From the NCBI GenBank assembly GCA_944389345.1, contig CALXMA010000002.1:11406-75405 (forward strand): DNA of 64,000 bases, given 5' to 3'. Made by a program: the position numbers and the translations under genes. Under the pieces are notes generated by a model. That model searched no databases. It was given only the letters and a program-made list of their open reading frames with translations, and was not told the origin of the DNA. Within the stretch, counting starts at the first letter, position 1. Every line of letters begins with the position of its first letter. This DNA is from an uncultured Alphaproteobacteria bacterium. Its GTDB lineage: Bacteria; Pseudomonadota; Alphaproteobacteria; Rs-D84. This document shows positions 1 through 15,509 of this stretch, in pieces.

Positions 1-18
1 GTTTAATATTTCTTGTGG

Positions 19-867
19 TTATATTGTGAAATCTGTTTTGGCGTGGAATTGGCCACCATGCGGTCCACATGGGCGTATCGGTGTCGGTATTGCGCATATC
101 GCGCCCGCAACCGCATCCAATCCGTCGTCGTGTGTTGTACCACCCATTGGTGTCCAACCCAACATTTCTGAAATCAGTGGTGTGGACCGAACCCGTTGAT
201 GCGCGTACAGGCGTCCCGACGTTAACAGTGGTTCCAGTGCATCCAAAATTCTGGTTTCTTTGTTTTTAGTGTTTGTCGTTTTCTGGACGGATATGCGCAT
301 ATTATGGCGCGACGATACGTCCCGCATAATTTCAGGTAATGCGTTCCCCATACCATTGGTTTCTATGTATATGCGACGCAGGCAATGACGTGATAAAAAT
401 TCCAACACCATTTCACACTGGTGCGCCAATGGATACAGTTCTGAATCCGATACAACCATGTACATAACATCGTGAATAAAAACACGTCTGGTTTTGTCGT
501 CGCGGTATATTAATACGCACACACTGGCATCAGAATTTTTACGACCAGATGACGGGTCCCAATATACCGTTGCGCCCGTAATATCCCAATTGTCCACACG
601 GGCCACAGTATGCACAAAATCGCCATCGTACAAATGCAACGCACCCGGGTCCAGACGTACCCGTTCCGGCGCAATGTATTCCAGCATCATTTGCGCAGAA
701 AAGCACCGCGTACCAACGGTTTGGCGCAGTTCTTCTATGCGTGATAACGGGAATTTTTCTGGCCATGTGGGTGTGCCGTCTGGGGAAATTATGGGCATCT
801 TTAACTGGCGATATCCGCACAAAAAAGGCGTTGAAAATTTGAAATTTTTATATACTATATCTGACAT
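19..867 (-). pseudogene. Terminase large subunit, C-terminal RNase H-like nuclease half only (gene split by insertion)
   Basis: Motifs seen are WPEKFPLSRIEELRQTVGTRCFSAQMMLEY, ATVYWDPSSG, RIYIETNGMG and THDDGLDAVAGAI. There is no ATPase domain. The possible restart ATGs at 867 and 798 have no convincing SD. Confidence 0.7.
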
Positions 868-2434
868 GGACTTTACCCCAAAAACTTTGCCCACAAATCT
901 GGAAGCGGAACAGGCCGTATTGGCCGCGGTTCTGATGAACAACCGCGCGTTGGAACGTATATCTGAATTTTTAAGGCCTGAACATTTTTACCACCCCGCA
1001 CACCAGGAAATTTACAAGTTGGCAGAACGACAATTTTCTGCGGGAATTCCATTCGATATTATTACCGCCAAAAATTATCTGGAACAGCAAGGCGTCCTGG
1101 AATCTGTGGGCGGTGTTGATTACCTGACACAATTGGCCAATGCCGGTGCAACCGTCGTTAATGTCGAAGAATATGGTCGCATCGTTTATGATAATGCCAT
1201 GCGTCGCGAATTAATAAACCTGGGCCAGTCTATTATGGACGACGCATTCGTCGAAGACCTGGACAAACCCGTGTCCGCACAAATAGAAGTCGCAGAACAA
1301 AAACTGTTCGAAATGGCGTCGTCTGGTGTTTCTGAACGCGAAGTGTCATCCATCGCAACCGCATTGAACAGCGCATTGAAAGAGGCGGAAATCGCGTACA
1401 AGGCCGACGGAAAGTTGTCTGGGTTGACCACGGGTCTGACCGCGTTGGACAAATCTATCAGTGGTCTGCATCATTCCGATTTGATAATTATCGCCGGACG
1501 TCCCGCGATGGGAAAAACGACACTGGCAATGAATATCGCATTTAATGCCGCCAATGCAATTCTGTATGGGCGGGCAAATGAACGGTACAAGGGCGCGGTC
1601 GTGTTTTTCAGTTTGGAAATGTCCGCATCACAGTTGGCCGCGCGCGTACTGTCTTCGCAGTCCAAGGTGCCGGCATCCGCCATGCGCGAAGGTTCGTTGA
1701 CAGACGAAGATTTCTTGAAACTGTCCCAATATTCTGATGCCATCAGCAAGGTACCGTTGTTTATCGATGATACACCGGGTATGTCTGTGCCGATGATACG
1801 CACACGCGCACGACGTCTGGCGCGGAAATGTGGCGGGATTGCATTGATTGTTATTGACTATCTGCAACTGATGACGTCGCCGGGCGGAAAAAACCGCGAC
1901 AATCGTGTCCAGGAAATTTCCGAAATTACACGTGGTCTGAAAATGCTGGCCAAGGAATTAGATGTGCCGGTCATCGCCCTGTCCCAGTTGTCGCGCAGTG
2001 TGGAATCACGTGATGATAAACGCCCACAATTGTCGGATTTGCGTGAATCTGGGTCTATTGAACAGGACGCCGATATTGTTATGTTTACGTATCGCGAAGA
2101 ATACTATCTGGACAATCGTGATCCATCACAACGCATTTCGGGTAATACCAACGAAAAAATTATGGAAAGTTATCAAAAACGTCTGGAACGCGCACGGGGC
2201 AAGGCCGATGTTATAATTGGTAAAAACCGTCATGGTCGACCGGAAACCGTCAAAATGGCATTCTTTGGCGAATACAGTTTGTTCGATAACCTGGACGAAA
2301 TGGCCGCACGTGGCGAAAATCCGTTCGATGCACAATCGGGTGGCGCCCAGATGGATGTTGCGCCGATGGATGATTCTGGGTATGCAACAGAATCTATTAA
2401 CGTCGATGATATTCCCGACGATATGCCGTTGTAG
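866..2434 (+). CDS. dnaB: Replicative DNA helicase DnaB
   Basis: Motifs seen are LPTNLEAEQAVLAAVL (N-domain), Walker A GRPAMGKTT, SLEMS, Walker B VIDYLQLM and GKNRHGRP, plus an acidic C-terminal tail. An alternative ATG at 791 has a GGGGAA SD. The track ORF start at 494 is an antisense-overlap extension. Confidence 0.9.
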   Translation: MDFTPKTLPTNLEAEQAVLAAVLMNNRALERISEFLRPEHFYHPAHQEIYKLAERQFSAGIPFDIITAKNYLEQQGVLESVGGVDYLTQLANAGATVVNVEEYGRIVYDNAMRRELINLGQSIMDDAFVEDLDKPVSAQIEVAEQKLFEMASSGVSEREVSSIATALNSALKEAEIAYKADGKLSGLTTGLTALDKSISGLHHSDLIIIAGRPAMGKTTLAMNIAFNAANAILYGRANERYKGAVVFFSLEMSASQLAARVLSSQSKVPASAMREGSLTDEDFLKLSQYSDAISKVPLFIDDTPGMSVPMIRTRARRLARKCGGIALIVIDYLQLMTSPGGKNRDNRVQEISEITRGLKMLAKELDVPVIALSQLSRSVESRDDKRPQLSDLRESGSIEQDADIVMFTYREEYYLDNRDPSQRISGNTNEKIMESYQKRLERARGKADVIIGKNRHGRPETVKMAFFGEYSLFDNLDEMAARGENPFDAQSGGAQMDVAPMDDSGYATESINVDDIPDDMPL

Positions 2435-2501
2435 CATTTTCTGCTTGCCATACTCGTAAAAATTGACTAATATTTTGTCAAGAAATTCAAGGAGATTTAC
2501 G

Positions 2502-3509
2502 ATGGCGCAAGAAGAAATTATTTTCCCAAACAATATCAGAAATATTCGTCTGGCCAATGGAATGAAAATGACAGAACTGGCGCGTCAGGCTAACTTGTCG
2601 CTGTCGGCGGTTTCCAAAATTGAAAAAGGCGTGCGTCGTCTGAACCAAAAACAATTACTGAACATCTGTAATATTTTGGGATGCAAACTGTCCGACATTT
2701 TTATCAAAGAATCTGACGAAGTGGCCGGTCAATGGCAAAATGAAATCAAACGCAGATTGTCTGATAACGAAAACAGCGGACTGAAAATTTTTGGCAGTGG
2801 GTTGCGTAAAATCCGTCAACATTCTGGGAAAACTATCGCCCAGGCCGCCCGTGATGCCGGTATGACGCTGTCTGTGTATCACAAGATAGAAGTTGGCCAA
2901 CGCGAAGTTTACCAGGACGAAATCGAACAATTGGCGAAATCTTTTGGATATACAGAAGACGCATTGTTTAACAAAATCGCAACACTGTACAAATCCGGCG
3001 AATTAACAAAGCAAATTGACAAGGTCAAAGAACGCGTCAAATCTGTGTTGGTGCCGGGGAATCCACTGTCGGGCATGGATATGCACAGCAGTTTATATGG
3101 CGCAAAATTATACGACAGCGCACGAAAAAAACTGGTGCCGGTGTTCGGTGTGCCGTCTGGCAAGGCAATCGCATTCAAAAAATCTGATAAAACCATGATT
3201 GTCGCACCAATGCCACTGGAAGGTCATAAAAGCATTTATGCCGTTATTCCTAACTCTAAGCGGTTGGGTGGTTTTATCCCTGAAAAATCTTATGTCTTTG
3301 CCGATGCCGATACGCCCGCACGTGTTGGGGATTTGGCCGTGTGCATAGATTCTGATTTCGAATCTATGGATGATAACGCGTCCGCAATGGCCCAGATTGT
3401 CAGCGTACGCCAAGATTCCAAGGGCAAGGTTTACGGACAAATTTCATCACCCGAAGAAAAAATTATCGGCCAAACAATGCATAAAATTGTTATGATTGTT
3501 ATGGAATAA
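2502..3509 (+). CDS. Regulator with two tandem Cro/CI-type HTH domains and a C-terminal LexA/CI (S24)-like domain
   Basis: Two HTH repeats are present (MTELARQANLSLSAVSKIEKG and IAQAARDAGMTLSVYHKIEVG). The SD AAGGAG lies 8 nt upstream of the ATG at 2502. The C-terminal beta-rich domain (VGDLAVCID...) resembles the S24 fold, but I could not confirm the catalytic dyad. Confidence 0.6.
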   Translation: MAQEEIIFPNNIRNIRLANGMKMTELARQANLSLSAVSKIEKGVRRLNQKQLLNICNILGCKLSDIFIKESDEVAGQWQNEIKRRLSDNENSGLKIFGSGLRKIRQHSGKTIAQAARDAGMTLSVYHKIEVGQREVYQDEIEQLAKSFGYTEDALFNKIATLYKSGELTKQIDKVKERVKSVLVPGNPLSGMDMHSSLYGAKLYDSARKKLVPVFGVPSGKAIAFKKSDKTMIVAPMPLEGHKSIYAVIPNSKRLGGFIPEKSYVFADADTPARVGDLAVCIDSDFESMDDNASAMAQIVSVRQDSKGKVYGQISSPEEKIIGQTMHKIVMIVME

Positions 3510-3533
3510 TCCGCAACAGAGAGGGAGTGAACA

Positions 3534-4193
3534 ATGAAGGCACGCGCCAGCACAGTTGCACAAAAACTGTTAAACCTGTATCGCCAAGAACACGTTATTT
3601 TTGGCGGTTGGGCCGCCGTGAACCAGGTATTCGTTGACGAAGCAACACCGGATGTTCTGCGCGAATTACGCGATTTACCCACGGGAAAAAATCTGATACG
3701 GCACATCGAAAACCTGCGCAGTGGAAAAACGCCGATGGATTCTATTGAACGCGAACTGTTGCCATATGGCGGAATGATGACAGAAACCGTCGCGACCGTG
3801 CCGTTAACCCCAGAAGAATGGCAAGAACTGGAACAAGGTATCGAAAATTTTACAACAGACCAAGATGGTCTGGACAAAATTCAGCAGTTGTCTGTTATTA
3901 AAAAATTCGGCGACCAGTGGTTGGTGGCTATTCGTTCCGCCCTGGCCCAGCGACCCGATTTGATGGATAAATGGTCCATCGTTAACAAAACGTATCGCGC
4001 GTATTATCTGTGGAAGGTTGCCAGCGACATGTTAAATCAACCATTGTCTGAACGTGCACGCGCACAATTACAGGCGGACATGCCAGAATACGAAACATAT
4101 TTGCCTATGTTCGGCGACCAGGGTACAGAATTACTGAACCATTTGCGCGATGCAATTACAACAATGCGTCCAGATGACGAAACTGATGCATAG
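3534..4193 (+). CDS. Hypothetical protein (219 aa), last gene of the dnaB cassette
   Basis: The ORF has an AGAGGGAG SD and follows the regulator gene by 24 nt. I recognise no family. Confidence 0.5.
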   Translation: MKARASTVAQKLLNLYRQEHVIFGGWAAVNQVFVDEATPDVLRELRDLPTGKNLIRHIENLRSGKTPMDSIERELLPYGGMMTETVATVPLTPEEWQELEQGIENFTTDQDGLDKIQQLSVIKKFGDQWLVAIRSALAQRPDLMDKWSIVNKTYRAYYLWKVASDMLNQPLSERARAQLQADMPEYETYLPMFGDQGTELLNHLRDAITTMRPDDETDA

Positions 4194-4196
4194 CAA

Positions 4197-4820
4197 TCAA
4201 TCCGTGGTACGGTATATCGTGTCCAATGTATGCGGTGTGCCGATATAAATCATTGTACCCGTTGGCGACAAGATAAAATCCAGTTCCCGTAATCGTTCCC
4301 GCAATGCCGTACGTTTTTGTGCGGTGTTGCTGGTATTTGGGACCTCTACGTCATCACATATAATTAAATCTGCACGCATACCGGTTATGTTTCCGTGTAC
4401 ACCCTGGCATATAACAGACGGTTCACGAATACCAATTGGACGTTTTACTGTTATACAATCGTGGGCCCATTCTTTTTTTGTGGTCGGGACCAAATCGGTG
4501 CACATCGGATGATTTTCCAAAATATGCCTGACGTGGGCAACCATGCGCGACGCCAGGTTTGATTCCGCCGACAATACCAATATACGTGTTTCTGGGTGCA
4601 AACGTAATACGCACGCAACAAATATTCCAACAACTGTTGATTTACCAGAATGACGAAACGCCTGTAACAGACCACGATGTGGCGGTGTGGTCAGAACAGA
4701 CACTAAAAATTCCATAATTTTCCGATGGTGTTCGGGTGTCGTCAACCCCAGCACGTCATTCCACGCGTCCATAAATTCATAAAACGCCGTAATCATCGCG
4801 ATTTTCGTTTGGGGCAACAT
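4197..4820 (-). pseudogene. Terminase large subunit, N-terminal ATPase half only
   Basis: Motifs seen are a deviant Walker A (FRHSGKST), Walker B (ADLIICDDVE) and the coupling motif IYIGTPHT. It terminates at ...DTIYRTTD, 3 nt from the converging plus-strand gene's stop codon. Confidence 0.75.
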
Positions 4821-5325
4821 CTGTTATCAGACCATAATCGTTTATCAAATTTGGCAACGCCCCATTCAATACAGATACCAGATTATTATACAGCCCCAAT
4901 GCACCGCCACCCGTCGTTTTGTCTTGGATTAATTCCAACGCGTATTCGATTTCTTGCTTAATCGTGTCATGCGTGTTTGCCCATTCTGCTAAATCCAAAT
5001 CAACACCACGCAAATCAGAAAATGCCGACAATAAAAAATTAAAGTCTGAATTCAGACATTCTGGATCTATTTCCGCCGTCGGCTGATAATCTATGACGCG
5101 GTTAAGTGCAATTTGCCGAAAGATATCCATACGTACCCCAGATGCAGGCGCACTGTTTAACAATACCGACCCACCCGTAAAATCAGAATTCGGAAATACC
5201 GTATACTGTTCAGGCGAAATCACCGTATCGTCCAACGCAATGCGAACATCGGCATTTTGAAAAAACGGAAACACAAAATTATAACTTTGCGTTTCGCCAT
5301 CACAAATATATGTTATTTTGTACAT
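4777..5325 (-). CDS. Tail-fiber N-terminal (tail-attachment) domain-like protein, apparently truncated
   Basis: The N-terminus YKITYICDGETQSYNFVFPFFQNADVRIALDDTVISPEQYTV matches the T7 gp17-type N-domain pattern. It is only 182 aa and overlaps the TerL-N start by 44 nt. Confidence 0.5.
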   Translation of the reverse strand: MYKITYICDGETQSYNFVFPFFQNADVRIALDDTVISPEQYTVFPNSDFTGGSVLLNSAPASGVRMDIFRQIALNRVIDYQPTAEIDPECLNSDFNFLLSAFSDLRGVDLDLAEWANTHDTIKQEIEYALELIQDKTTGGGALGLYNNLVSVLNGALPNLINDYGLITDVAPNENRDDYGVL

Positions 5326-5345
5326 TGTTTTATTCCCCTTTTTTT

Positions 5346-5693
5346 TTAGCCCAACAAATCGTCAAATCTGTTCAACAATGTTTGCAATAAATTTGGACGC
5401 TGGGCACGGGTTTGCTTTAATTTTTCCAGATTAGATTTGCGACGCTGGTCATATGGCTGGGCCGTTTCTGATTTTAATCTGCGCAATACGGCGCCGGTAC
5501 TGGTACTGCGTCCGGACGCACCAGACGCACCATATTTTGCACGCTGGGTCGCCAATGTTTGTTTTATTAAATTACGTTTTTCTTTTTCATCGTCTGCCAT
5601 TTCCGCCAGAATTTTTTGGCGTTCGTTTTCGGCACTGCGTTTATTATCTTTATAATCTAATACTGTTTTTACATCAGACACAAGTTGTCCCAT
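5346..5693 (-). CDS. Hypothetical charged phage protein (115 aa)
   Basis: The ORF sits in the phage late block and is Lys/Arg/Glu-rich. I recognise no family. Confidence 0.4.
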   Translation of the reverse strand: MGQLVSDVKTVLDYKDNKRSAENERQKILAEMADDEKEKRNLIKQTLATQRAKYGASGASGRSTSTGAVLRRLKSETAQPYDQRRKSNLEKLKQTRAQRPNLLQTLLNRFDDLLG

Positions 5694-5726: not shown

Positions 5727-7445
5727 CTAGACCGTGTAATATCCGTATGTGCATACAGACAATATCGTCGTTGGCAATTGTTCATTGCTGGAAATTTCCC
5801 ATGGCGACGTTATACTGTTGCGACGTTTTCCCAATATATTCACAGAAACATCACCGCTGTATCCGGGACTGGATTGGCCGTATATTTCATTCGGGAATAC
5901 CACGCGCATACCATTTATGTACAGCGTTTTTGTGTTCAGTACCCGAACAGATACTTTTCTGACCCGGGCCAAACGCGCATTATGCCCTGACACGCGCAAT
6001 GGCAACGCAACCGCAGTGTATGCGAAACTGTATTCGCCCGCATCCAATGTCGTATCCGCAGAAAATTTTTCCAGGCAATATTCATCCCCGCGCAAAACAA
6101 CAACGTATGTTTCATTATCTATGGTCGCAACAGATGTAAATTTGCCATGCGTCGTATATCGTGCCCACCCAGATATCCCCAAACTGGAATTCTGGTTCAA
6201 TGTCGCCATTTGCCCGTCTGACATCACAACGTACAATCTGTGTGCACGTTCGTTATATGATATATCCACAGGATCGCACATTAAATGTTTTGCCTGGGGA
6301 CACAAATCACGCGCGTTATAATTTTCACCCAATGCGTCCAGGCTTAGTTCACGTATATCAGTGCGGGTGGCAGAAATAAATGCTGTGGCGCCTTCGATTT
6401 TCTGGCACGGCAGATAGCGGGCGGATACACTGCCCACGGATGTGTGTTGTTTTATGTCCACAGACGACGGGGTTAATGGTTTACTGGAAATCGCCCATTC
6501 GCCCGCGTTTGTTAGAATCTGTAAATTATCACTGCTGACCAGGGTGCAAATTTGTTGGCGCGTCTGTGATAATAATGTTATTGATATCGCTTCGTCATCC
6601 AGACCAGTGCCAGAATCAAAATTGTTATGACGTCCAACCTGGGACAGCCACAACCCACCCGGCCATGAACGCGTCCCACCAAACACCAGTCTGTCTTGGT
6701 GAAATGTTATACTGCGTGGCCAACCGCGACGTTTACTGAACGCGGATTCATACCATTCTGATACGGGTTCGTCCGGCAAATCGTATCCGCCATTCACGTA
6801 TGCGTATACCACGCGCGGACTGATGTACTGGGTGATGGTCCACTGTTTACCCAATATTTGCAGGCGACCATCTATGCAATCTGATGTCCAAAAATCTGCG
6901 TCTGTGGTCAATGTGGCGGTATTCGGGCCGGACGCATTTGTTGTTATTGTGATTTTTATACCGTCTGAATCATCGAAACGCATGAACGGCATTCGCAAAG
7001 ACATATCCGTATCATTACGAGAAAACGCAAATTCCACCAGTTCAAATCCTGAACCCGTTTTTCTTAATACCTGGGGCGGATAATCAGAATGCACAAAAAT
7101 CATGGTGCCAAAGCGTTGAGCATACTGAACCTGGGCCAGGTCCGAGAGTTTCCATGGCGTTATCAATAAATATGTCGATTCTTGGCCCGGCGCATAGATG
7201 CGCATACTGTAATCCATCAATATCAACAAATAGTTATGCGTGTCATCAACCGAAAACGGTACCAGGCGCGCATTCGACGGCAATGTCGATACAGATGACA
7301 ATCCGTCACGGCGTGTTAACCCACCCCCGGGGGTAATATCCATATTTTCCAAACGCGCCAAGCCATTCAAATTATCGCGTGCAAAAAATTCTGGGGATAC
7401 TTCGCCGTCGGCAAAAGAGTTTTGGGTTTTGATAAAATCTGACAT
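5727..7445 (-). CDS. Tail tubular protein B-like (T7 gp12-like)
   Basis: The N-terminus is GEVSPEFFARDNLNGLARLENMDITPGGGLTRRDG and an internal segment reads HQDRLVFGGTRSWPGGLWLSQVGRHNNFD, analogous to T7 gp12 NRLGFLSGENIILSRTAKYFNF. It lies directly downstream of the tubular A-like gene. Confidence 0.65.
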   Translation of the reverse strand: MSDFIKTQNSFADGEVSPEFFARDNLNGLARLENMDITPGGGLTRRDGLSSVSTLPSNARLVPFSVDDTHNYLLILMDYSMRIYAPGQESTYLLITPWKLSDLAQVQYAQRFGTMIFVHSDYPPQVLRKTGSGFELVEFAFSRNDTDMSLRMPFMRFDDSDGIKITITTNASGPNTATLTTDADFWTSDCIDGRLQILGKQWTITQYISPRVVYAYVNGGYDLPDEPVSEWYESAFSKRRGWPRSITFHQDRLVFGGTRSWPGGLWLSQVGRHNNFDSGTGLDDEAISITLLSQTRQQICTLVSSDNLQILTNAGEWAISSKPLTPSSVDIKQHTSVGSVSARYLPCQKIEGATAFISATRTDIRELSLDALGENYNARDLCPQAKHLMCDPVDISYNERAHRLYVVMSDGQMATLNQNSSLGISGWARYTTHGKFTSVATIDNETYVVVLRGDEYCLEKFSADTTLDAGEYSFAYTAVALPLRVSGHNARLARVRKVSVRVLNTKTLYINGMRVVFPNEIYGQSSPGYSGDVSVNILGKRRNSITSPWEISSNEQLPTTILSVCTYGYYTV

Positions 7446-7460: not shown

Positions 7461-7982
7461 TTAGAATCGTGCGTTAATTAATGAAAATGTTTCTATTCTG
7501 CTGTGGTTTGGCGCAGATGTACTGTCTATGAATTTAGCGGTTTGCAATTCTGTTTCGTACAGTGCCGCCAACATACTGAATATGTTTTGTTCACCAATTA
7601 ACGGGATACAAAATTCCATCGCCAGTTTCGATACCAATACGGGTATAAAATATTCTGGCAAAGATTCTGGTGGGACGCGCACAATCGACCGAATTGTAAT
7701 ACGGGTTGACGGCGCGTGAATTTTATCGCCGATTATATCGCCCGGCGCCTGTATCACCCGCAGGCATTCCGATGGTATTTGAAATTCGCCATCCGCATTT
7801 TTTATTAAATCTGTATCGCGACATGCAAAACGCCATGGGTGTACACACAATAACGCATCCAATATCGCATCAAATAATGTACGGGCCAACTGGGCCGACG
7901 GAACATCTGCCATCAAAGATTGGATTGGTGATTCACCCAATTTTAACAGCGCCATAGAACATAAATCTATTTTTGTATACAT
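7461..7982 (-). CDS. Tail tubular protein A-like (T7 gp11-like)
   Basis: The pattern CSMALLKLGESPIQSL ... HPWRF ... LPEYFIPVLVSKLAMEF parallels T7 gp11 VNDILASIGEPPVSTL ... GWTF ... MPECFRYWIVTKASRQF. Confidence 0.6.
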   Translation of the reverse strand: MYTKIDLCSMALLKLGESPIQSLMADVPSAQLARTLFDAILDALLCVHPWRFACRDTDLIKNADGEFQIPSECLRVIQAPGDIIGDKIHAPSTRITIRSIVRVPPESLPEYFIPVLVSKLAMEFCIPLIGEQNIFSMLAALYETELQTAKFIDSTSAPNHSRIETFSLINARF

Positions 7983-8041: not shown

Positions 8042-8269
8042 TTACGACAATGCAGAAACAGATACACTGTCGGCAACCTTGATTGTCTTGATAGCAGTAC
8101 TGTCAGACGCATTGATTATGACTATGTCGCCCGAATTCATCAGCGTAGATACACCATCAAAATATCCCGACGCAGTGATTGTCGTCATCGTTTCGTTCGC
8201 AGTATAGTGCCACAATGTAAACCCATTCGCATACGCAATTACAGACAAATTTTTATTTTGAAATGCCAT
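8042..8269 (-). CDS. Small hypothetical phage protein (75 aa) between the capsid and tail genes
   Basis: The ORF has matching position and orientation. I recognise no family. Confidence 0.4.
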   Translation of the reverse strand: MAFQNKNLSVIAYANGFTLWHYTANETMTTITASGYFDGVSTLMNSGDIVIINASDSTAIKTIKVADSVSVSALS

Positions 8270-8298: not shown

Positions 8299-9132
8299 TT
8301 AATTAGAACCATCTGTGTCTTTGCATTTAATGCGCACTATGCCGGCGTCATCAATCAAGACCGCACCCTGGGACATACTGTTGCTGATGAAATGCGCGGC
8401 GCGTTCGCCATGCCATGTGATGTCTGTTTTGACATCTTGGCCAGACGCATGACCGATACTGGTTGCGTGATACATAAAGCAATCACGCTGGGCCGTGGTC
8501 GCCGACGGTAAATCGTTATACAAAACCCATGTAATGCCCAACCATTTCTTGGATGCGCCACCGGAAATTAACGGCAATGAATCACCAACATAATCCGCAG
8601 ATATAAATTCTTCGATAGACAACAGTTCATTCCACTGGTGCACACCAACAACCGCAAATCTGCGCCCGTCATCAGGAACATCGTTTTCGTTCAATACCTG
8701 TAATGCAGACAAAATTAAGTCTTTGGTCAGACCGGTTGAATAATCGCCCACAGATGTCGTTGCATCAGACATCGCATCAACAATTAATTCATCTGTTTTA
8801 CGACCCAATGCATACGCCCCCGCAGACGCAACAACCTGGCGTTCATCAACGTTGGTCTTTAATTCGTCCAACGCGTCAACCCAATCACCGGCATAGTAAT
8901 CTTGCAAAACACATTCAACCGGTTCATGGTCCAGGTTCATTACCGGCACAATTCCATGACGCGATTTAGTACTGGCCATACCACGACCAACCTTTTGAAA
9001 CGTTGTGGACGCGCCGACAACACCCGTTTTACTGCGTACCGTAGAACGCAGTTTGGTGCCCATCTGTTGATATGCCAGATGAACGTCGGCTTCGAACTGT
9101 TTTATAAAAATGTTATCAACTGAAACAGACAT
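8299..9132 (-). CDS. Major capsid protein-like
   Basis: The start MSVSVDNIFIKQFEADVHLAYQQ... at ATG 9132 has an AAGGGG SD. It lies after the scaffold gene and before the tail-tube genes. The sequence pattern resembles podoviral HK97-fold coat proteins, but this assignment is from memory only. Confidence 0.6.
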   Translation of the reverse strand: MSVSVDNIFIKQFEADVHLAYQQMGTKLRSTVRSKTGVVGASTTFQKVGRGMASTKSRHGIVPVMNLDHEPVECVLQDYYAGDWVDALDELKTNVDERQVVASAGAYALGRKTDELIVDAMSDATTSVGDYSTGLTKDLILSALQVLNENDVPDDGRRFAVVGVHQWNELLSIEEFISADYVGDSLPLISGGASKKWLGITWVLYNDLPSATTAQRDCFMYHATSIGHASGQDVKTDITWHGERAAHFISNSMSQGAVLIDDAGIVRIKCKDTDGSN

Positions 9133-9368: not shown

Positions 9369-9743
9369 TTATTTTTTCTTTGCACAAGCCTTTTTAGCAA
9401 CTGGCTTTTTTGCAACTGGTTTTTTCGCGGCGACTTTTTTTACCGCAACTTTTTTCGCGGGTGCCTTTTTTGCAACCGGCTTTTTCGCGGCAACTTTTTT
9501 CACTGCAACTTTTTTCGCAGGTGCTTTTTTTGCAACTGGTTTTTTCACTGCAACTTTTTTCACAGCGACTTTTTTCGCAGGTGCTTTTTTTGCAACTGGT
9601 TTTTTAGCGGCAACTTTTTTTGCAGGTGCCTTGGCCGCAACAGCCTTTTTCACGGCCGGTTTTTTTGCAACAGGTTTCGCCGCAGGTTTTGCAACCGGTT
9701 TTTTTGCAACGGGCTTTTTCGCAGCAAAGATTTTGAATGCCAT
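9369..9743 (-). CDS. Lys/Ala-rich histone H1-like (Hc1/AlgP-like) basic repeat protein
   Basis: The 124-aa protein is almost entirely (A/P/V)KK repeats, with three 20-aa units [19 protein letters not shown](A/V) from a 60-nt DNA period. It has a strong SD (AAAGGAGAG), a possible own promoter (TTTACT-N17-TAAAAT) and its own terminators. Confidence 0.7.
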
Positions 9744-9847: not shown

Positions 9848-10504
9848 CTACGAATATAATTTTTTGAAACCGTTTTCTATTTTTCTGACGTATTCAGGAT
9901 CATGATCACGCCAATATTTTGGATCGCGCATCATGCGACGTAAATCTGAGTCTGTTAAATTTTCTGTGTCATCATGTGTCGTGCGAACCGTTGGTTCCAT
10001 TGATTGCATCATCGCGTAAACACTGCGGATTCCCTGGGGTGTGGCGCACAATGCATCAAACGCATCACGTGGTAAATATTTTTCACCAAACGCATTTATT
10101 GCATTTAATGCATTACACATTTTTTCTGTATCACCAAAAAATTTTTCTAATTCTGATATCGCATTCGTTTCATTTTGCACATCAAATAAATCTGTAATTA
10201 TTGGTGATAAAAAATCTTGGGCAATTTGATAAATCTTTTCAACCTGGGTTGATGTTAACCCAATTTCAAAAAATTTTTCGCGTAATTCTGGATCATCGAA
10301 CAATGCATTTGTCGGATAATCTGTCGCAGATTCTGGGACACCAATTGCACGATTAAATTTCGTGCGCGCATCTTGGTCAGAATTTTCATCCGGCACAGAT
10401 ACCATCGTCCCCAGTTTCTTTTCTAGTTCAGAATATGACTTTAACAACGCGTCCGTGTTTAATGTACCATCGGATTTAAGAAATTTTGCTGGAATTTTTT
10501 CCAT
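9848..10504 (-). CDS. Head scaffolding protein-like
   Basis: The start MEKIPAKFLKSDGTLNTDALLKSYSELEKKLG is a typical scaffold N-terminal pattern. A GGGGGA SD precedes the ATG at 10504, and the gene lies upstream of the capsid gene. Confidence 0.55.
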   Translation of the reverse strand: MEKIPAKFLKSDGTLNTDALLKSYSELEKKLGTMVSVPDENSDQDARTKFNRAIGVPESATDYPTNALFDDPELREKFFEIGLTSTQVEKIYQIAQDFLSPIITDLFDVQNETNAISELEKFFGDTEKMCNALNAINAFGEKYLPRDAFDALCATPQGIRSVYAMMQSMEPTVRTTHDDTENLTDSDLRRMMRDPKYWRDHDPEYVRKIENGFKKLYS

Positions 10505-10697
10505 TTGTTTTTCCCCCTGATTCATTGGATTTGCGCAGAAAATAAATTCCGCCAAATGTAAATATAGATTGAAACATCGTGAATATATCTGTATCGCCAA
10601 CCATGTATGCGCCAACCGCGTACAGTATGCCCAGACCAGATATTATGCATGTTCTGTGTCCTGATAAAAAACCACCACTGATTATTTTACGTATCAT
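10476..10697 (-). CDS. Holin-like small membrane protein
   Basis: The 73-aa protein has two hydrophobic segments (IISGLGILYAVGAYMV and MFQSIFTFGGIYFL) and a charged tail. It lies directly downstream of the cell-wall hydrolase gene. Confidence 0.35.
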   Translation of the reverse strand: MIRKIISGGFLSGHRTCIISGLGILYAVGAYMVGDTDIFTMFQSIFTFGGIYFLRKSNESGGKTNGKNSSKIS

Positions 10698-10714: not shown

Positions 10715-11125
10715 TCACAGGTAAAATAATAATCCGTCTATGTCCGCAATATATCCACGCGACGTCGCCCAATCTGGTATAGTATCTGCATGATGAAATC
10801 GCGTCGCGCCAAAGCATGTGTCTGGTAAATTTCCATGCAACATTCGTCCAACTGTGCGCAGGCACATTTCAAAACCACTGTTCGTTATATCAATATTTAA
10901 CAATTCGTGATTTGACGACGTCGGACACAGCGATGGAAATATAGACGCATCACATACCATATTTTCAATCGGGCATTCAAACGCACGTGAAAAATTTGCA
11001 ATCATTGATGTCAGTGCTTCGACAACGCGCAAGGATGATGCATGCGTTTCTGCGTATACTATGCGCGCGATTTTATACATCAACGATTTCGATGTATCTG
11101 GATTTTTTATCAGTGTCAGTTTCAT
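10715..11125 (-). CDS. Cell wall hydrolase, SleB-like (endolysin candidate)
   Basis: The pattern IARIVYAETHASSLRVVEALTSMIANF ... GATRFHHADTIPDWA matches the SleB/CwlJ-type hydrolase pattern. Confidence 0.7.
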   Translation of the reverse strand: MKLTLIKNPDTSKSLMYKIARIVYAETHASSLRVVEALTSMIANFSRAFECPIENMVCDASIFPSLCPTSSNHELLNIDITNSGFEMCLRTVGRMLHGNLPDTCFGATRFHHADTIPDWATSRGYIADIDGLLFYL

Positions 11126-11150
11126 GTTTGGACAATTCCCGTATTCTTGT

Positions 11151-11210
11151 AAAAATAAAACGGGTCACACCGTGTGCGACCCGCAATAAAAAAACCGCAT
11201 ATTAATGCGG
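11151..11210 (-). terminator. Tandem terminators downstream of birA
   Basis: On the minus strand, CCGCAT-TAAT-ATGCGG is followed by TTTTTTT, and then GGGTCGCACACGGTGTGACCC is followed by a T-rich run. Confidence 0.6.
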
Positions 11211-11262
11211 ACAAAATTCTTCTTTTTGAATGCCCTTATTGTATCATATTTTCACATAAATG

Positions 11263-11943
11263 TCAAGATGTTTTTTTGTCATCCGTGGATGTTGGCATAC
11301 TGATTTCATCGCCATACGCCAAAATATACCGCGTGCCGTCGCGCAAAATTAATGCCCCGGTCGTATTTATCCCGATTAATTCAACATTTGTTCCGCGGTA
11401 TTTTACAATTCTGTTCAAACCCGCCGCCAATTCTGTCCAACGCGCGCGCACATCCGCAAACGGCACACGGCGCCATTTATCCAGGTTCTTCATCAATTTA
11501 ACCAATAAATCAGAACAATCCACATCTGTATACTTATCCAGTTTAGTGGTTTTATATGACGACACCGTGGGATTTGATTTTACATTTATCCCAATTCCCA
11601 CAACGACAAAACGTCCCGCATATTCAATTAAAACACCCGCAACCTTTTTCCCGTCTATCAAAATATCATTAGGCCATTTTATCTGGGGGGTGATGCCAAA
11701 CGCAATCAGTGTTTCTGCAATCGCAACCGCAACAACATACGACAAACATGGATCACGTTCTTCGGCGTTGAAAATAAAACTGGCATACAGATTGCCATGA
11801 TGCGACACCCATGTGCGTCTGTACCGACCGCGCCCCGCAGACTGGGCCAGTGCAACCACAACCGTATGGTCGCGCGCATCACCCGATGCAACCAAGTCCA
11901 ATGCATAATCTTGGGTACTGGGGATTTTATCAAAAGATATCAT
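11263..11943 (-). CDS. birA: Biotin--[acetyl-CoA-carboxylase] ligase
   Basis: Motifs seen are QSAGRGRYRRTW and KWPNDILIDGKKVAGVLIE. The ATG at 11943 abuts the upstream gene's stop codon. Confidence 0.85.
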   Translation of the reverse strand: MISFDKIPSTQDYALDLVASGDARDHTVVVALAQSAGRGRYRRTWVSHHGNLYASFIFNAEERDPCLSYVVAVAIAETLIAFGITPQIKWPNDILIDGKKVAGVLIEYAGRFVVVGIGINVKSNPTVSSYKTTKLDKYTDVDCSDLLVKLMKNLDKWRRVPFADVRARWTELAAGLNRIVKYRGTNVELIGINTTGALILRDGTRYILAYGDEISMPTSTDDKKTS

Positions 11944-11944
11944 C

Positions 11945-12415
11945 TTATACCCGGCCAAGTTTATACACCCCGTTTTCATTTTGAATAAAATCACGACCAA
12001 ATGTACGGCGCAACTGGTATATTGCGGTATCAACCGTGTGTGTTGTCGCGTTCGGCGAATATCCCAATGCCGTACGCAAATCACCAGATGTCATTCCACC
12101 AGACCGGTACAGTAATATAACAATCTGGGCCTGGATATGTGGCAATGAAACCGCATGACCAAAAATATGTGTCAGAATTCGAATATTACCGTCCATTGCA
12201 CGCATAACCGCGGTCTTGATCGCCAATGGCGTCGCAGGCAAAGAAATATCCAACGCATCAAAATCCAGACATGTGGCATCGGGCGCATCGCACAGCGTCG
12301 CCCCCAGGTCAGATAATATCTGGCGCCAGATTTCGTCTGATGAATAAATCTTGATACCGTTTAACATATTTGCAGAATAATAAAACATCACAGAATTGTC
12401 CATAAAAAAGACCAT
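11945..12415 (-). CDS. Winged-helix (OmpR/PhoB C-terminal-type) DNA-binding protein
   Basis: The C-terminus SGDLRTALGYSPNATTHTVDTAIYQLRRTFGRDFIQNENGVYKLG matches the Trans_reg_C pattern. I see no receiver domain. Confidence 0.5.
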   Translation of the reverse strand: MVFFMDNSVMFYYSANMLNGIKIYSSDEIWRQILSDLGATLCDAPDATCLDFDALDISLPATPLAIKTAVMRAMDGNIRILTHIFGHAVSLPHIQAQIVILLYRSGGMTSGDLRTALGYSPNATTHTVDTAIYQLRRTFGRDFIQNENGVYKLGRV

Positions 12416-12459
12416 GATTATTACAATTCATGGTCTGGTACGTATCCAAAACCGACGGT

Positions 12460-12705
12460 TTATTCGCGCCCTTTGTCCGGGGTATCGATAAACTTGGTAA
12501 AATCTTGGATACTGGCACCCGTTGACGACAATATTTTTGAAATACTGTTCGTGGACGGCCATCGTGGTTGACCTTCTTTGGACCAGCGTTTGCTTTTATT
12601 AAACGTGGTCGGGTCCAGTCCACTGCATTTCGCCAATCCAGAACACGACATACCGTGTTCCGTGGCAAAACGTTCTATGGCGTGCCAAACATCATCATGG
12701 GTCAT
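12460..12705 (-). CDS. Small HTH protein resembling the N-terminal domain of alphaproteobacterial S24/CI-like repressors (no peptidase domain)
   Basis: The sequence is VWHAIERFATEHGMSCSGLAKCSGLDPTTFNKSKRWSKEGQPRWPSTNSISKIL. A paralog lies at 27002-27232. Confidence 0.6.
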   Translation of the reverse strand: MTHDDVWHAIERFATEHGMSCSGLAKCSGLDPTTFNKSKRWSKEGQPRWPSTNSISKILSSTGASIQDFTKFIDTPDKGRE

Positions 12706-12911
12706 TTTCTCTCTCCTGTGGTTAACATTCCGGATTTAATCCGAAAATCTGGATATATTCTTGATATATCTGGTATTGATTTTATTCCAATATTAAACCG
12801 CAGGCAACAAGGACGATTTCCTATTTTCCCCAGATTTTGGGCTTTTTTTGGCTTTTATACCTATATTTGGGAATAAGATAAAATAATTTTGACAAAAATA
12901 CTTGACAAATA

Positions 12912-12940
12912 CCAAAAAATGTATTACATTTCGATTCGTC
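12912..12940 (+). promoter_or_regulatory. Sigma70-like promoter for the candidate sRNA
   Basis: TTGACA (12912-12917) is followed by a 17-nt spacer and TACATT (12935-12940). Confidence 0.4.
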
Positions 12941-12946
12941 AAAGGG

Positions 12947-13141
12947 GGAAACCCCGGCGACGGGGTGAAAACCCCATGGGGTTCAGGGATTCAGACTCCC
13001 TCCTACATTCTCTCTCCTCTGGACTCTGGGCCCCACAAATTGGTTTAGAATGCCCAATTTCTTTTTCTCCTTTCCTTCCTTTCGGGGCATTCGGAAACAC
13101 CGCCGACGCAACAGCATCGGCGGCGTTTTTTATAATGCAAA
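12947..13141 (+). ncRNA. Candidate trans-acting sRNA (about 195 nt) with CU-rich loops
   Basis: A promoter lies upstream. The 5' part has alternating G4/C4 runs forming mutually exclusive GNRA-type hairpins. The stem GAATGCCC/GGGCATTC encloses a CU-rich loop. An intrinsic terminator (CCGCCGA...TCGGCGG plus a T6 run) closes it. There is no plus-strand gene downstream. Confidence 0.4.
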
Positions 13142-13146
13142 ATCCG

Positions 13147-14073
13147 CTATCTTTCAAAAACAGAAAATAATTCCCAATGCGCACTGGCCACGAATTGGTC
13201 AACAGGGATTAACCGCGTCATTTTATATCCGCCACGTGTCAGTATCGCGCAATCGCGACGCCATGTTGCCGGATTACATGAAACATATATCACACGACCG
13301 GTTGTGGAACGCGCCAATTGTTCACACTGGGCACGTGCGCCCGCGCGTGGCGGATCCATTACCACACAATCGTATTCTTTCAACATTCCAACGGTTAACG
13401 GGTGTGTAAATAAATCGCGCGTTGTCCCAATGCCCGCAATATCAAAACCATCCGCATTTAACGCAAATGTAAAATTACCCAATCCACAAAACAAGTCCGC
13501 CGTATGACGCGCCCCACGGGCAGATTCCACCACCATATTACGCAGTGTCTGTTCACTGGCCAATGTGGGCTGTAAAAATGCGCCCGCGGGATATTCAACA
13601 ACATGTCCATCAAAGTTCACCGTTGGTGTCGCACGCCGAACGACATCGCGACCGTTCCAGGTTATTCTGATGACATCTGTTTTTTCCGCACTGTGTTTGA
13701 ATTCTGTGGTAAAATACGGCACAGTCGATGTAATCGCAACATCCACGCCGTTATCGCACACCGTTACCAGGCATGAACCCGCCCCACCCCACGGCAATTC
13801 CGCAATTTGTGGTAAAATTTTATTTATTTCATCCATTAACAGCGGACAATGACGCACGGGGACGATATTCTTGCTGTGCGCCATATAAAAACCAAAGGCA
13901 CCGGGTGCGAACGCAAAATCCGCACGACGACGTCCACCGGGCGCGAACCATATCGCATCATCCGTGATTGGCAAATCGCCCAGTTCTGATAATTTTTTGG
14001 CGCGGTAATCAGGCGATGCAAAATCAAATTTGCAACCACCACAAATTCCAAAAAATGGACAAGTATTTATCAC
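13147..14073 (-). CDS. SAM-dependent RNA (uracil-5-)-methyltransferase, TrmA/RlmD family
   Basis: Features seen are the N-terminal Cys cluster CPFFGICGGCKF, FCGLGNFTF, DPPRAG and YVSCNPAT. Confidence 0.8.
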   Translation of the reverse strand: MINTCPFFGICGGCKFDFASPDYRAKKLSELGDLPITDDAIWFAPGGRRRADFAFAPGAFGFYMAHSKNIVPVRHCPLLMDEINKILPQIAELPWGGAGSCLVTVCDNGVDVAITSTVPYFTTEFKHSAEKTDVIRITWNGRDVVRRATPTVNFDGHVVEYPAGAFLQPTLASEQTLRNMVVESARGARHTADLFCGLGNFTFALNADGFDIAGIGTTRDLFTHPLTVGMLKEYDCVVMDPPRAGARAQCEQLARSTTGRVIYVSCNPATWRRDCAILTRGGYKMTRLIPVDQFVASAHWELFSVFER

Positions 14074-14079
14074 AGCACG

Positions 14080-14724
14080 TCAGAAATGTACACGGGCACC
14101 CAATCTGAACTGGTGCGCGACAGGCGCAAAATCAGATATCACATCGAATTCTGGGGAAAACATATACATATATCTGTACCCCAGGTCCAACGCAAAATGT
14201 TCGCCCAGTTCCACCCCCAGACCGGCCATAGCAGATATAACCGGACTGATTTTATTTTCTATTTTTGCGCCGTCCGCAGAATTCCACGATACGCCCGCAC
14301 CCACGCCGACGTACGGAACCATACGCTGGCGATAAAACAGGCGGTACATACTGTCTATTCTGGCATCAAAGTACGCGTTTATCATTGCCGTATCACCCGT
14401 CATATCAAACGCGTCCCATTTGGCCGATGTACGAATGTAATTCGCGTCCAGGCGGAAAATGTCCGTAACACGCATACCAACAACCGCTTCGAACGAAGAT
14501 GTGTTTTTACCACTGATACCGACCGCGTCATCAGCGCCGTTATTCCACATTGAAAAATCATACGCGCCACCAACATAAAACCGGCGCAGTCGGGCCAATG
14601 CCTGGTCATCGTTGACGGGCGTCGTATCAACCGGCATATTAACCTGTTCTGTACGATATGGAATCGCCGCATTTGCCACCATCGGCATCATACACATAAT
14701 ACTAAACAATATTTTCGATTTCAT
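14080..14724 (-). CDS. Outer-membrane beta-barrel protein
   Basis: It has the signal peptide MKSKILFSIMCMMPMVANA, alternating beta-strand patterns and a C-terminal ...LGARVHF. Confidence 0.7.
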   Translation of the reverse strand: MKSKILFSIMCMMPMVANAAIPYRTEQVNMPVDTTPVNDDQALARLRRFYVGGAYDFSMWNNGADDAVGISGKNTSSFEAVVGMRVTDIFRLDANYIRTSAKWDAFDMTGDTAMINAYFDARIDSMYRLFYRQRMVPYVGVGAGVSWNSADGAKIENKISPVISAMAGLGVELGEHFALDLGYRYMYMFSPEFDVISDFAPVAHQFRLGARVHF

Positions 14725-14747
14725 TTTTATTCCCCGTACTTAGCCCA

Positions 14748-15509
14748 TCAGAAATTCACACGGAACGACGCCATGATATTACTGATATTATCAACACCAC
14801 CGGCGCGAACATCCCAACCAAAACCATTGCCTATCATCATCTGGTACTGATACATAATATCAATTCCAATCAATTCATTCAGCATTACATTAAACCCAAG
14901 CGTGGCACGTGGCGCACCAATCACAAAGCCATCCGCCCCACCAGGACCACTGAACCGATAAAATCCCGCCGATGCGCCCAAGCCCATAAATGGAACAAAA
15001 CGACGACGATATGTTATATCGCCCATTTGCACATAACGGCGCGCAAAGTCAAAATACAGCATTCCACCAATCGTTTGGTACGTGGCATCCATTCCGGATA
15101 TATCAGAAAATTCAAACGTAGATTCTTGGAAATCTAGTTCTGTACGCACATAGGACGACAAATTCCACCCCAGGCCAATTTGGGTTGTCCAACTGCCCGC
15201 CGTGCTGAATTTTTCGCCGTTAAACGTTGCCTGGTCCGTGGCGAACGGCAGATTCAACCCCGCACCCGCACGCATATACATAGATGTCGGGACAAAAACC
15301 TGGACATCGGAATTATACCCCGCGTCCGCCGTCTGGTACACGTCCAGTCCCAACGCACCCGGCGCCGGATCAGGATTATCAATCGTATTGCGGGCACCGA
15401 CTAAATCAACACCCTCTAACACTTCGGCGCGAAATTTATCCGCATCATATGCCATCGCAGGCGTCGCCAATAATATCGCAAAAATCCCCAAGTATGATAT
15501 TTTCTGCAT
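14748..15509 (-). CDS. Outer-membrane beta-barrel protein
   Basis: It has the signal peptide MQKISYLGIFAILLATPAMA and a C-terminal ...ASFRVNF. Confidence 0.65.
   Translation of the reverse strand: MQKISYLGIFAILLATPAMAYDADKFRAEVLEGVDLVGARNTIDNPDPAPGALGLDVYQTADAGYNSDVQVFVPTSMYMRAGAGLNLPFATDQATFNGEKFSTAGSWTTQIGLGWNLSSYVRTELDFQESTFEFSDISGMDATYQTIGGMLYFDFARRYVQMGDITYRRRFVPFMGLGASAGFYRFSGPGGADGFVIGAPRATLGFNVMLNELIGIDIMYQYQMMIGNGFGWDVRAGGVDNISNIMASFRVNF

Follow-up and report, generated by a model that had tools for sequence, protein, structure and literature searches.

The genome of an uncultured alphaproteobacterium of the order Rs-D84 contains, in the 64,000-nucleotide stretch of DNA analysed here (the window; GenBank assembly GCA_944389345.1, contig CALXMA010000002.1, forward-strand positions 11,406 to 75,405), a phage-type gene for the large subunit of a T7-type terminase (TerL) that is present in two parts. 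The parts, terL-N and terL-C, are both on the minus strand near the left end of the window, and the 3.3 kb between them hold three plus-strand genes, which encode a DnaB helicase, a regulator with two helix–turn–helix (HTH) domains and a protein of 219 amino acids (aa), p219. The terL halves belong to a longer row of phage-type head, tail and packaging genes, hereafter called the cluster. Positions are those of the window unless stated otherwise (Table 1).

Two complementary parts of a terminase

The product of terL-N holds the ATPase core, with the Walker A motif FRHSGKST, the Walker B motif LIICDDVE and the coupling motif GTPH (within IGTPHT), and ends 10 residues past the coupling motif, with ...DTIYRTTD. 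The motifs WPEKFP...FSAQMMLEY, VYWDPSSG, IYIETNGMG and HDDGLDAV are encoded by the minus-strand open reading frame (ORF) 942–19. We placed the start of terL-C at the ATG of a CATG tetranucleotide, which gives 282 aa, on the basis of the alignment to intact TerL proteins; gene callers independently give 279–282 aa for its orthologues in other species. Pfam assigns TerL-N to Terminase_6N, and TerL-C to Terminase_6C and Terminase-T7_RNaseH-like. On the PHROG family phrog_38 (760 positions), TerL-N covers positions 270–459 and TerL-C positions 480–705. The corresponding ranges on the NCBIfam model termin_lrg_T7 (NF033889; 500 positions) are 2–190 and 330–500, with scores of 225 bits for TerL-N, above the cutoff of 150, and 106 bits for TerL-C alone, under it.

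The nearest unsplit relatives, found in a search of 1.8 billion representative proteins, are TerL proteins of around 460–510 aa with approximately 50–53% identity in the N-terminal half. When TerL-N and TerL-C were aligned to six intact TerL proteins, the two parts matched them end to end, with no loss, no duplication and no extra blocks, and the break fell in a short variable linker of the intact proteins. At the break, '...GTPHTLDTIYRTTD' stands opposite '...GTPHxxxTIYA...' of intact TerL; after it, '...FSTPFLCGYRQLKMPI...' of TerL-C stands opposite '...PYLDGYLALRLPL...', and TerL-C as a whole corresponds to the C-terminal ~290 aa of the relatives. The T7-type TerL is usually a single chain of ~470–590 aa that carries both domains; here, an ORF of 207 aa and one of 282 aa are separated by 3.3 kb. 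Homologues of TerL-N include hundreds of proteins of ~200 aa (76–83% identity) on chromosomal contigs, and its orthologues all stop at DTIYRT followed by 2–10 variable residues.

The cut lies inside the ATPase domain and not at a domain boundary, because the Pfam ATPase model would extend ~90 positions past the end of TerL-N and the nuclease model begins near residue 100 of TerL-C. TerL-N maps onto residues 46–212 of a 586-aa T7-type TerL (PDB 8DGC chain E, 8dgc_E). In an AlphaFold2 (AF2) model of TerL-C alone, the nuclease domain has predicted local distance difference test (pLDDT) values of 84–95 and the first ~70 residues have values of 30–66. The top Foldseek match of this model is the PhiV-1 terminase (8dgc_E, E = 1e-12), and it also matches the nuclease domains of the terminases of P22, RB49, SPP1 and Sf6; a direct sequence search of TerL-C against the PDB gave no match.

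A first-pass annotation, made from the letters and ORFs of this DNA, had singled out the locus, and all of its sequence-level statements hold: the ORF coordinates, motifs and ORF ends are as it gave them, the three plus-strand genes are there (Pfam recovers DnaB and two HTH_3 domains), the last stop codon of the block is 3 nt from that of terL-N and the dnaB ATG shares its CATG with the start of terL-C. It had seen no integrase, transposase, intein or repeats, and we likewise found no integrase or transposase within 10 kb, no repeats at the junctions and no intein in the alignment. Its impression that almost no terminase sequence is missing is borne out by the six intact TerL, on which the fragments abut without gap or overlap. 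It had also described one half as ATPase only and the other as nuclease only; this is correct for TerL-N but not for TerL-C, the first ~65–100 residues of which are the end of the ATPase domain.

With regard to gene models, automatic calls in this species mis-start both divergent genes, giving a dnaB of 565 aa from an ATG at 737 and a terL-C of 223 aa from MMLEY (737–942; 12388–14803 in locus L001), presumably because the true starts overlap; lengths of 522 aa for dnaB and 282 aa for terL-C are supported by homology and by the calls in other species. One TerL-C orthologue of 402 aa (P0271), considered as a possible fused TerL and rejected as such, contains an exact internal tandem duplication of ~120 residues (SHITGSVLYWDPSSG... 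twice), which is probably an assembly artefact but could be real.

Both junctions between terL and the nested block are tight. The CATG in which dnaB and terL-C start is kept in nearly all of 73 species, and a second group of species has an in-frame insertion of 5–6 codons following the same ATG. A GGRG resembling a Shine–Dalgarno (SD) sequence lies upstream of the conserved TerL-C start. At the other end, where the stops of p219 and terL-N are 3 nt apart in the window, they are merged in a single 4-nt box (TTAA, CTAG or TTAG) in 51 of 81 species and are separated by a few nucleotides in most of the remainder. As the stop codons and the start codons overlap there, neither junction contains non-coding DNA. 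The two terL halves have separate starts and stops in all species.

An arrangement fixed and under selection across species

With each species represented by a single genome, a scan with TerL-N detected a relative in at least 496 genomes, and the best 80 were examined. These are Candidatus Enterousia or gut alphaproteobacterial metagenome-assembled genomes (MAGs), with one closed chromosome of 958,618 bp among them. Enterousia (order Rs-D84) have genomes of 0.75–1.0 Mb with a coding density of ~0.90, and pseudogene accumulation is reported to be absent (PMC12306168). All cluster proteins were compared with the 80 species loci by tblastn. Order and strands are identical in every one of the 72 loci that contain all five central genes, with 0 exceptions; the 8 further loci are cut by contig ends and are consistent with the same arrangement. 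The whole 15-gene order, including the flanking lipB, is present in 55 loci, and the spacing from TerL-N to TerL-C varies only from 3,313 to 3,400 bp. The exact TerL-N protein occurs in 247 blocks of public assemblies, and the same split arrangement is seen in 10 out of 10 loci compared among 23 long contigs that carry it. It is also found in a closed long-read chromosome (OZ007020.1).

Ratios of nonsynonymous to synonymous substitution rates (dN/dS; Table 1) are Nei–Gojobori medians across 66–81 species and are approximate owing to dS being near saturation for many pairs, so that the ranking of genes is clear and the values are rough. Phage-derived genes with measurable values (scaffold left out) have ratios of 0.07–0.24, with 0.30 for p136, and the lowest ratio measured is that of DnaB. 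Walker A, Walker B and GTPH are invariant in 81 of 81 species, and the acidic residues of the nuclease (the D of WDP, the E of ETNG and the D residues of DDGLDA) in 71 of 71; no internal stops were found in TerL-C in 71 species. Median identity between species is 78% for TerL-N and 58% for TerL-C. The ATPase-derived residues 21–65 of TerL-C (dN 0.28) and its nuclease core (dN 0.32) are equally constrained; that the former segment is conserved yet poorly folded alone is as expected if it completes the ATPase fold of TerL-N. Both terL halves are under purifying selection comparable to that on housekeeping genes, and we conclude with high confidence that the arrangement is old, fixed and selected.

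The nested block

The first gene of the plus-strand block encodes a DnaB that passes the NCBIfam models NF006606 (623 bits, cutoff 540) and TIGR00665 (519 bits, cutoff 385) and fails the phage_DnaB model TIGR03600 (422 bits, cutoff 499). As the cellular equivalog models are passed and the phage model is failed, dnaB is of the cellular type, and it is very probably the cell's own replicative helicase gene in these genomes of ~850–900 genes. The protein has an acidic C-terminal extension of ~45 residues (…GENPFDAQSGGAQMDVAPMDDSGYATESINVDDIPDDMPL; 2290–2434), beyond the end of all family-model matches at residue ~483.

The HTH regulator also matches PHROG repressor and regulator families. We considered an S24/LexA-like peptidase for its C-terminal domain and dropped this, as the domain has no Pfam or PDB match. 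The third gene product, p219, has no family match in Pfam, PHROG or NCBIfam. It has 1,267 homologues, none of the 120 listed carrying a Pfam domain; informative names among the matches listed are those of the same MAG lineage, and p219 is, by these comparisons, a lineage-restricted protein. Its AF2 model is all-helical (pLDDT 79) and has no structural match below E = 1.5 in the PDB or BFVD. No endonuclease family match was found among the genes of the block in Pfam, PHROG or NCBIfam.

The surrounding head–tail–packaging cluster

The order of the cluster, traced by tblastn in the species loci, is lipB, p136, scaffold, capsid, p75, tube A, tube B, p115, fibre-N and TerL-N; then, on the opposite strand, p219, HTH regulator and DnaB; then TerL-C, portal, Bbp19 and p86. 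The last three lie past the left edge of the window, where TerL-C is followed by a T7-type portal gene, a Bbp19-family gene, an 86-aa gene and then housekeeping genes. The cluster is without integrase, replication and early genes and is flanked by housekeeping genes; no integrase, transposase or phage polymerase was found within 10 kb on either side of the locus.

The 3′ end of fibre-N overlaps the start of terL-N by 44 nt in another frame (4777–4820) in most loci, fibre-N being unmatched in some. Identity of the capsid protein between species is 76–90%. A match of p115 to Pfam T7_gp14 is sub-threshold (E = 0.38 only). The gene p124, the product of which passes the Pfam model for histone H1-like proteins (HC2), could encode a DNA-condensing head protein, or this match may merely stem from low complexity, and p136 weakly resembles a cell-wall hydrolase or endolysin.

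Table 1 Genes and other features of the split terL locus and its cluster, with median dN/dS where available
Feature	Position	Strand	Length (aa)	Description	dN/dS
portal				T7-type portal, past the left edge of the window	0.07
terL-C	19–867	minus	282	residues ~1–65 last ATPase strand and lid; linker; RNase H-like nuclease ~98–260	0.17
candidate dnaB promoter and 5′ signals	808–858	plus		inside terL-C codons 4–20; TTGAAA-N16-TACTAT at 831–858	
start/start junction	865–868	both		CATG; dnaB ATG 866–868 (plus), terL-C ATG 867–865 (minus)	
dnaB	866–2434	plus	522	first gene of nested block; Pfam DnaB and DnaB_C	0.06
HTH regulator	2502–3509	plus	335	two HTH_3 (Cro/CI-type) domains (Pfam) and ~150-aa C-terminal domain	0.08
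p219	3534–4193	plus	219	last gene of nested block	0.21
stop/stop junction	4191–4199	both		p219 TAG 4191–4193; terL-N stop 4197–4199 (TCA, TGA on minus)	
terL-N	4197–4820	minus	207	ATPase core: Walker A, Walker B, GTPH coupling motif	0.09
fibre-N	4777–5325	minus	182	tail-fibre N-terminal, adaptor-like; PHROG tail/tail-fibre families on N-terminal ~100 residues	
p115	5346–5693	minus		small conserved protein; position kept in all loci	0.19
tube B	5727–7445	minus	572	tail tubular protein B-like; phrog_376 tail protein, E = 9e-82	0.18
tube A	7461–7982	minus	173	tail tubular protein A-like; Pfam Tube, phrog_394	0.16
p75	8042–8269	minus		small conserved head-module protein; phrog_18004 (function unknown)	0.09
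major capsid protein	8299–9132	minus	277	Pfam Phage_capsid_2, E = 1e-74	0.07
p124	9369–9743	minus	124	Lys/Ala/Pro-rich, between scaffold and capsid; Pfam HC2, 60 bits (cutoff 40)	
scaffold	9848–10525	minus	225	T7-type capsid assembly; PF05396 Phage_T7_Capsid on orthologous gene	
p136	10715–11125	minus		first cluster gene; phrog_938 endolysin, E = 4e-5; Pfam Hydrolase_2, E = 0.005, below its cutoff	0.30
cluster leader	11160–11266	minus		promoter TTGACA-N17-TACAAT with upstream TG (extended −10), 11266–11238; box; two hairpins	
lipB				flanking housekeeping gene	0.13

Expression signals

The promoter-like site before dnaB, the −10 box of which ends 8 nt upstream of the dnaB start codon, lies within terL-C. 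The site coincides with codons 6–20 of terL-C, the ~45 nt upstream of the dnaB ATG, in which third-position entropy at conserved residues is 0.06–0.26, compared with a gene mean of 0.74. Codons 6–20 of terL-N, which overlap fibre-N, served as a positive control and show a similar drop in synonymous variation. No synonymous-site constraint was found in the first codons of dnaB, which led us to reject an internal terL-C promoter at that position, and no separate promoter signal for terL-C was detected. In this species dnaB is without an SD sequence, and in the second species group an insertion of 15–18 nt brings an SD-like AAGGA. The missing SD sequence and the −10-like box 8 nt before the ATG suggest that the dnaB mRNA is leaderless.

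At the other end of the cluster, before p136, lies a leader in which a conserved CATAAACAG-like box stands between the near-consensus promoter and two tandem hairpins (11210–11195 and 11184–11160), each followed by a T-run, and then an SD sequence and ATG; the same leader was noted at 3540–3700 of locus L001 (window 11120–11270, minus strand). This layout is kept in 33 of 33 species, and 8 of 10 predicted hairpin pairs have compensatory changes. By analogy, late operons under antitermination control are laid out in this way, a form of control established both for the gene transfer agent (GTA) of Caulobacter, CcGTA (PMC11150451), and for BaGTA, in which a Q21-like protein and a −10-like element take part (doi 10.1101/2024.11.20.624540). 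In 61 of 66 species, there are no terminator-like hairpins on the TerL strand across the nested block. As the block is nearly free of terminators and terL-C has no separate promoter signal, an antiterminated polymerase could cross it into terL-C.

Related terminase loci

In the nearest true phage contigs (L094, L177 and L178; 51–53% identity), TerL is uninterrupted, which we take as the ancestral state, and ends the canonical T7 order of portal, scaffold, capsid, tube A, tube B, fibre and TerL. The Enterousia cluster is a circular permutation of this phage order: the portal block comes after TerL-C, all early genes are gone and the dnaB block lies within terL. IMG/VR holds 334 related contigs, and all 58 that are long enough, at 70–83% identity, have the split with the nested block; as all show this arrangement, we regard the 58 as provirus calls on the chromosomal cluster. 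Approximately 77 uncultivated viral genomes (UViGs) of 4–16 kb in IMG/VR (L100–L176) are this chromosomal cluster, including the host dnaB and sometimes lipB.

A different bacterium (L096 and L097; 45% identity) has TerL split in the same linker, as adjacent ORFs of 210 and 271–284 aa, the stop and start of which overlap in ATGGGTGA without inserted genes; this split is retained in two assemblies that differ by a linker indel. Half-length 'terminase large subunit' families also exist in PHROG. A second lineage split at this point, together with the half-length families, marks the linker as a permissive fission site. The fission in the second lineage is probably independent, judging by its identity of 45% as compared with 51–53% for the intact relatives.

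The split TerL of this second lineage (L096, 10001–11480; L097, 10001–11441) is isolated in the chromosome, as no further structural genes lie within 10 kb of it, and has variable, defence-like neighbours: an OLD-family TOPRIM ATPase in L097, and an M78 peptidase and Beta_protein in L096. An intact TerL of the lineage (505 aa, 51% identity; L091, 10001–11518) likewise stands alone between housekeeping genes, next to nothing but small ORFs without an assigned function. Such isolated genes for T7-type TerL may recur in bacterial chromosomes.

Interpretation of the split

The reading that we favour, and consider likely, is an ancient gene fission in a domesticated podovirus-like, GTA-like cluster, with a terminase of two chains and the dnaB operon nested between their genes. 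Fission in a surface linker just past the ATPase coupling motif would have left terL-N and terL-C independently translated and made the break an ordinary gene boundary, to which the dnaB block could have moved later; such an order of events would explain the clean cut. The chains would reassemble non-covalently, the N-terminal segment of TerL-C completing the ATPase fold of TerL-N. The cluster would be switched on by antitermination at the conserved promoter and double-terminator leader, and polymerase would then continue beyond terL-N, cross the dnaB block in the antisense direction and transcribe terL-C, portal, Bbp19 and p86, thereby coupling particle production to interference with the helicase–regulator operon. 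Our confidence that the two halves form one working terminase is moderate, and it is low to moderate for the model of read-through and commitment. A more far-reaching version is doubtful: an order-wide, antitermination-controlled GTA-like system of podoviral origin, with an obligate two-chain terminase, in which a late operon running antisense through the essential dnaB–regulator operon would act as a commitment switch between replication and self-sacrificial particle production.

Several points weigh against the proposed fission and domestication. The binding of the two chains and their activity are predicted from sequence and from the model of TerL-C, and a GTA-like function from gene content, synteny and selection only, the last of these measured at a dS near saturation. 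The first leader hairpin or hairpins may be no more than the terminator of lipB. No antiterminator was identified; p219 was considered as a Q-like candidate, which is unsupported, as it has no similarity to Q proteins in the PDB or BFVD. Among the cluster genes, PHROG and Pfam revealed neither a small terminase nor a lysis cassette nor any internal core protein of the T7 type, and such genes could be elsewhere, unrecognised or absent. Finally, the second lineage is no proof of the sequence of events in Enterousia.

The halves could instead both be functional without forming one terminase, with TerL-N, for example, as a minimal ATPase and TerL-C as a free nuclease, perhaps in a role other than packaging. 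Each half does have its own start, its own stop and intact catalytic motifs, the nuclease domain folds confidently alone, and the faster evolution of TerL-C (58% versus 78% median identity) is compatible with partly different constraints. This is nevertheless unlikely, because TerL-N stops short of the final core strand and the lid of the ATPase domain, the ATPase-derived segment of TerL-C is conserved like the nuclease core and is not predicted to fold alone, and both genes have kept their place in a cluster whose portal, scaffold, capsid and tail genes are conserved with them in all species. We consider it distinctly improbable that the split killed the terminase and that a decaying remnant persists by chance or through its overlap with signals of the dnaB operon. 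The nested operon constrains the ends of the halves, through the promoter-like region inside terL-C and the overlapping stops of p219 and terL-N, and the unrecognised small terminase, lysis and core genes would suit a relic; however, the overlap constraint spans only ~20 codons, whereas purifying selection spans both whole halves and a dozen cluster genes (66–81 species), TerL-C has kept its frame clear of internal stops in 71 species and the hosts are streamlined (coding density ~0.90), with no pseudogene accumulation reported (PMC12306168). The same fixation (72 of 72 loci), the purifying selection, the cellular type of dnaB and the place of the cluster between housekeeping genes, without integrase, replication or early genes, contradict the inactivation of a prophage packaging gene by a recently inserted cassette; the first-pass annotation had inferred a cassette that inactivated or re-wired such a gene. 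The comparison of syntenic loci that it proposed yielded neither an uninterrupted terminase nor an empty site among 72 complete loci. Of the readings it offered, prophage domestication or a regulated split gene is what fits.

The clean bisection itself could speak for a programmed rearrangement, in which the 3.3-kb block would be excised in particle-producing cells or otherwise rearranged to rebuild terL, in the manner of the sigK skin element or of phage-mediated active lysogeny; the same-strand halves could be joined by deletion, and the loss of dnaB would be tolerable in a cell bound to lyse. There are, however, no direct or inverted repeats at the junctions, with only short, imperfect and scattered repeats in 1–5400, and across 73 species the longest string common to the two junctions averages 6.4 nt (direct) or 7.0 nt (inverted), compared with 7.6 nt for random window pairs. 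With no recombinase gene within 10 kb on either side, an arrangement invariant in all genomes examined and junctions filled by overlapping stops and starts, this is very improbable; a rejoined gene would not need the conserved ATG and SD sequence of TerL-C. Joining at the level of RNA or protein, through an intron (giant or trans-spliced) or a split intein, has a precedent in the natural split inteins of phage terminase genes (PMC2677866) and is more improbable still: Rfam finds nothing in 1–5400 at E ≤ 1 (and only tRNAs at the gathering threshold overall), the sequence beside the halves codes on the opposite strand, and the end-to-end alignment, in which only 2–10 variable residues follow DTIYRT in TerL-N and TerL-C begins at once with residues homologous to intact TerL, leaves no space for even an atypical split intein of ~25 + 100 aa. 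The first-pass annotation had also named an assembly chimera, or fragments that overlap or come from different terminase lineages, such as two prophage remnants side by side, as grounds for doubt. An assembly artefact is excluded, because the arrangement is found again in 72 other species and in assemblies made independently from many samples, one of them a closed long-read chromosome; both halves belong to phrog_38 and NF033889, and thus to the same TerL lineage, and are complementary without overlap. Taken together, artefact and tandem remnants are scarcely credible.

Comparison with known systems

The initial statement that no described class of element matches the locus was too strong, since both gene fission without inteins and GTAs are known; the exact combination was not found in the literature searched. 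In the Aeromonas phage Aeh1, nrdA is split by the homing-endonuclease gene mobE, and the two polypeptides are reported to form a functional enzyme (PMC2677866). As in Aeh1, an enzyme gene is cut here by inserted DNA into two ORFs that keep their order and orientation, have their own stop and start, and carry no splicing element. Unlike in Aeh1, the intervening 3.3 kb are on the opposite strand and contain a cellular dnaB operon and no homing endonuclease, and the locus is not in a phage genome but in a domesticated chromosomal cluster fixed across a lineage, in which reassembly of the chains would be analogous. The 'fractured genes' of Dassa et al. (2009) combine a split intein with a same-strand homing endonuclease, and a gp17-like terminase locus is among their hosts (PMC2677866). 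They share with terL two halves on the same strand at one locus in N-to-C order, and differ from it in that terL has no intein halves and no free-standing homing endonuclease, inserted genes on the opposite strand and overlapping stop/stop and start/start junctions.

With the GTAs (RcGTA, CcGTA, BaGTA and FpGTA), the cluster has in common a phage-derived, syntenic and vertically inherited set of head, tail and packaging genes that is without integration and replication genes and is under purifying selection. Like CcGTA and BaGTA, it is preceded by a leader with promoter and terminators (33 of 33 species), for which antitermination is a candidate mode of control here. Its structural genes, unlike those of RcGTA and BaGTA, are T7/BPP-1-like and have no homology to theirs; a podovirus-like GTA-like element, FpGTA of Faecalibacterium, has only just been described (PMC12946183). 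The trait that defines a GTA is the packaging and transfer of essentially random host DNA, without preference for the cluster itself, and the Enterousia cluster is a candidate by its genes. The Bartonella BaGTA and run-off replication (ROR) system, suspected from the Pfam name Phage_Bbp19 and a GC content of ~45%, was rejected: by their descriptions, the bgt genes of BaGTA include a lambda-like portal and terminase, and the ror genes a Twinkle-like helicase and an exonuclease, which sets them apart from the T7-like genes and DnaB here (PMC3610622, PMC2697382), and the host is Enterousia rather than Bartonella.

Excisable prophages, active lysogeny and skin elements differ from the locus, which has no recombinase and no att-like junction repeats above chance, and in which presence of the block is invariant. 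Satellite-like interference had been another early suggestion and does not agree with the fixed synteny and the absence of mobility genes in the block. Phage satellites such as phage-inducible chromosomal islands (PICIs) and P4-like elements have an integrase, a replication initiator or primase and functions that redirect packaging; the block contains only the cellular dnaB, the HTH regulator and p219, and no mobility signal. TerL itself agrees with the T7-type proteins (gp19; NF033889; 8DGC chain E) in family, motifs and domain order, and differs from them in being made up of a 207-aa and a 282-aa chain, with the break within the ATPase domain. In the literature searched, which included few subscription journals, so that absence is not proof, we found neither this cluster nor any GTA of Rs-D84 described, and no terminase with an essential host gene between its halves; nor did we find a split terminase or a nested essential gene described there for any GTA.

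Implications

If the two chains rebuild an active terminase, the locus is a natural case of a viral packaging motor that is divided within its ATPase fold and stable in evolution, which would inform how the ATPase and lid of TerL cooperate and offer a design point for split-protein engineering. An essential replication operon nested in a late operon, with overlapping starts and stops, is an extreme case of gene interleaving and provides a testable model of regulation by transcriptional conflict. Should the commitment model be true, polymerase transcribing the activated particle genes would have to pass head-on through the helicase and repressor genes on its way to terL-C and portal. There is also a practical consequence for viral surveys: virus-detection pipelines flag the cluster as a provirus, and IMG/VR lists this chromosomal cluster and the host dnaB as viral contigs.

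The locus points to an undescribed, domesticated podovirus-like particle system that is kept across hundreds of species of uncultured, genome-reduced gut bacteria. That genomes so reduced have kept ~12 kb of phage genes demands explanation, and the system would add to GTA-like biology both a structural type and a group of hosts, in the animal and human gut, that are new to it.

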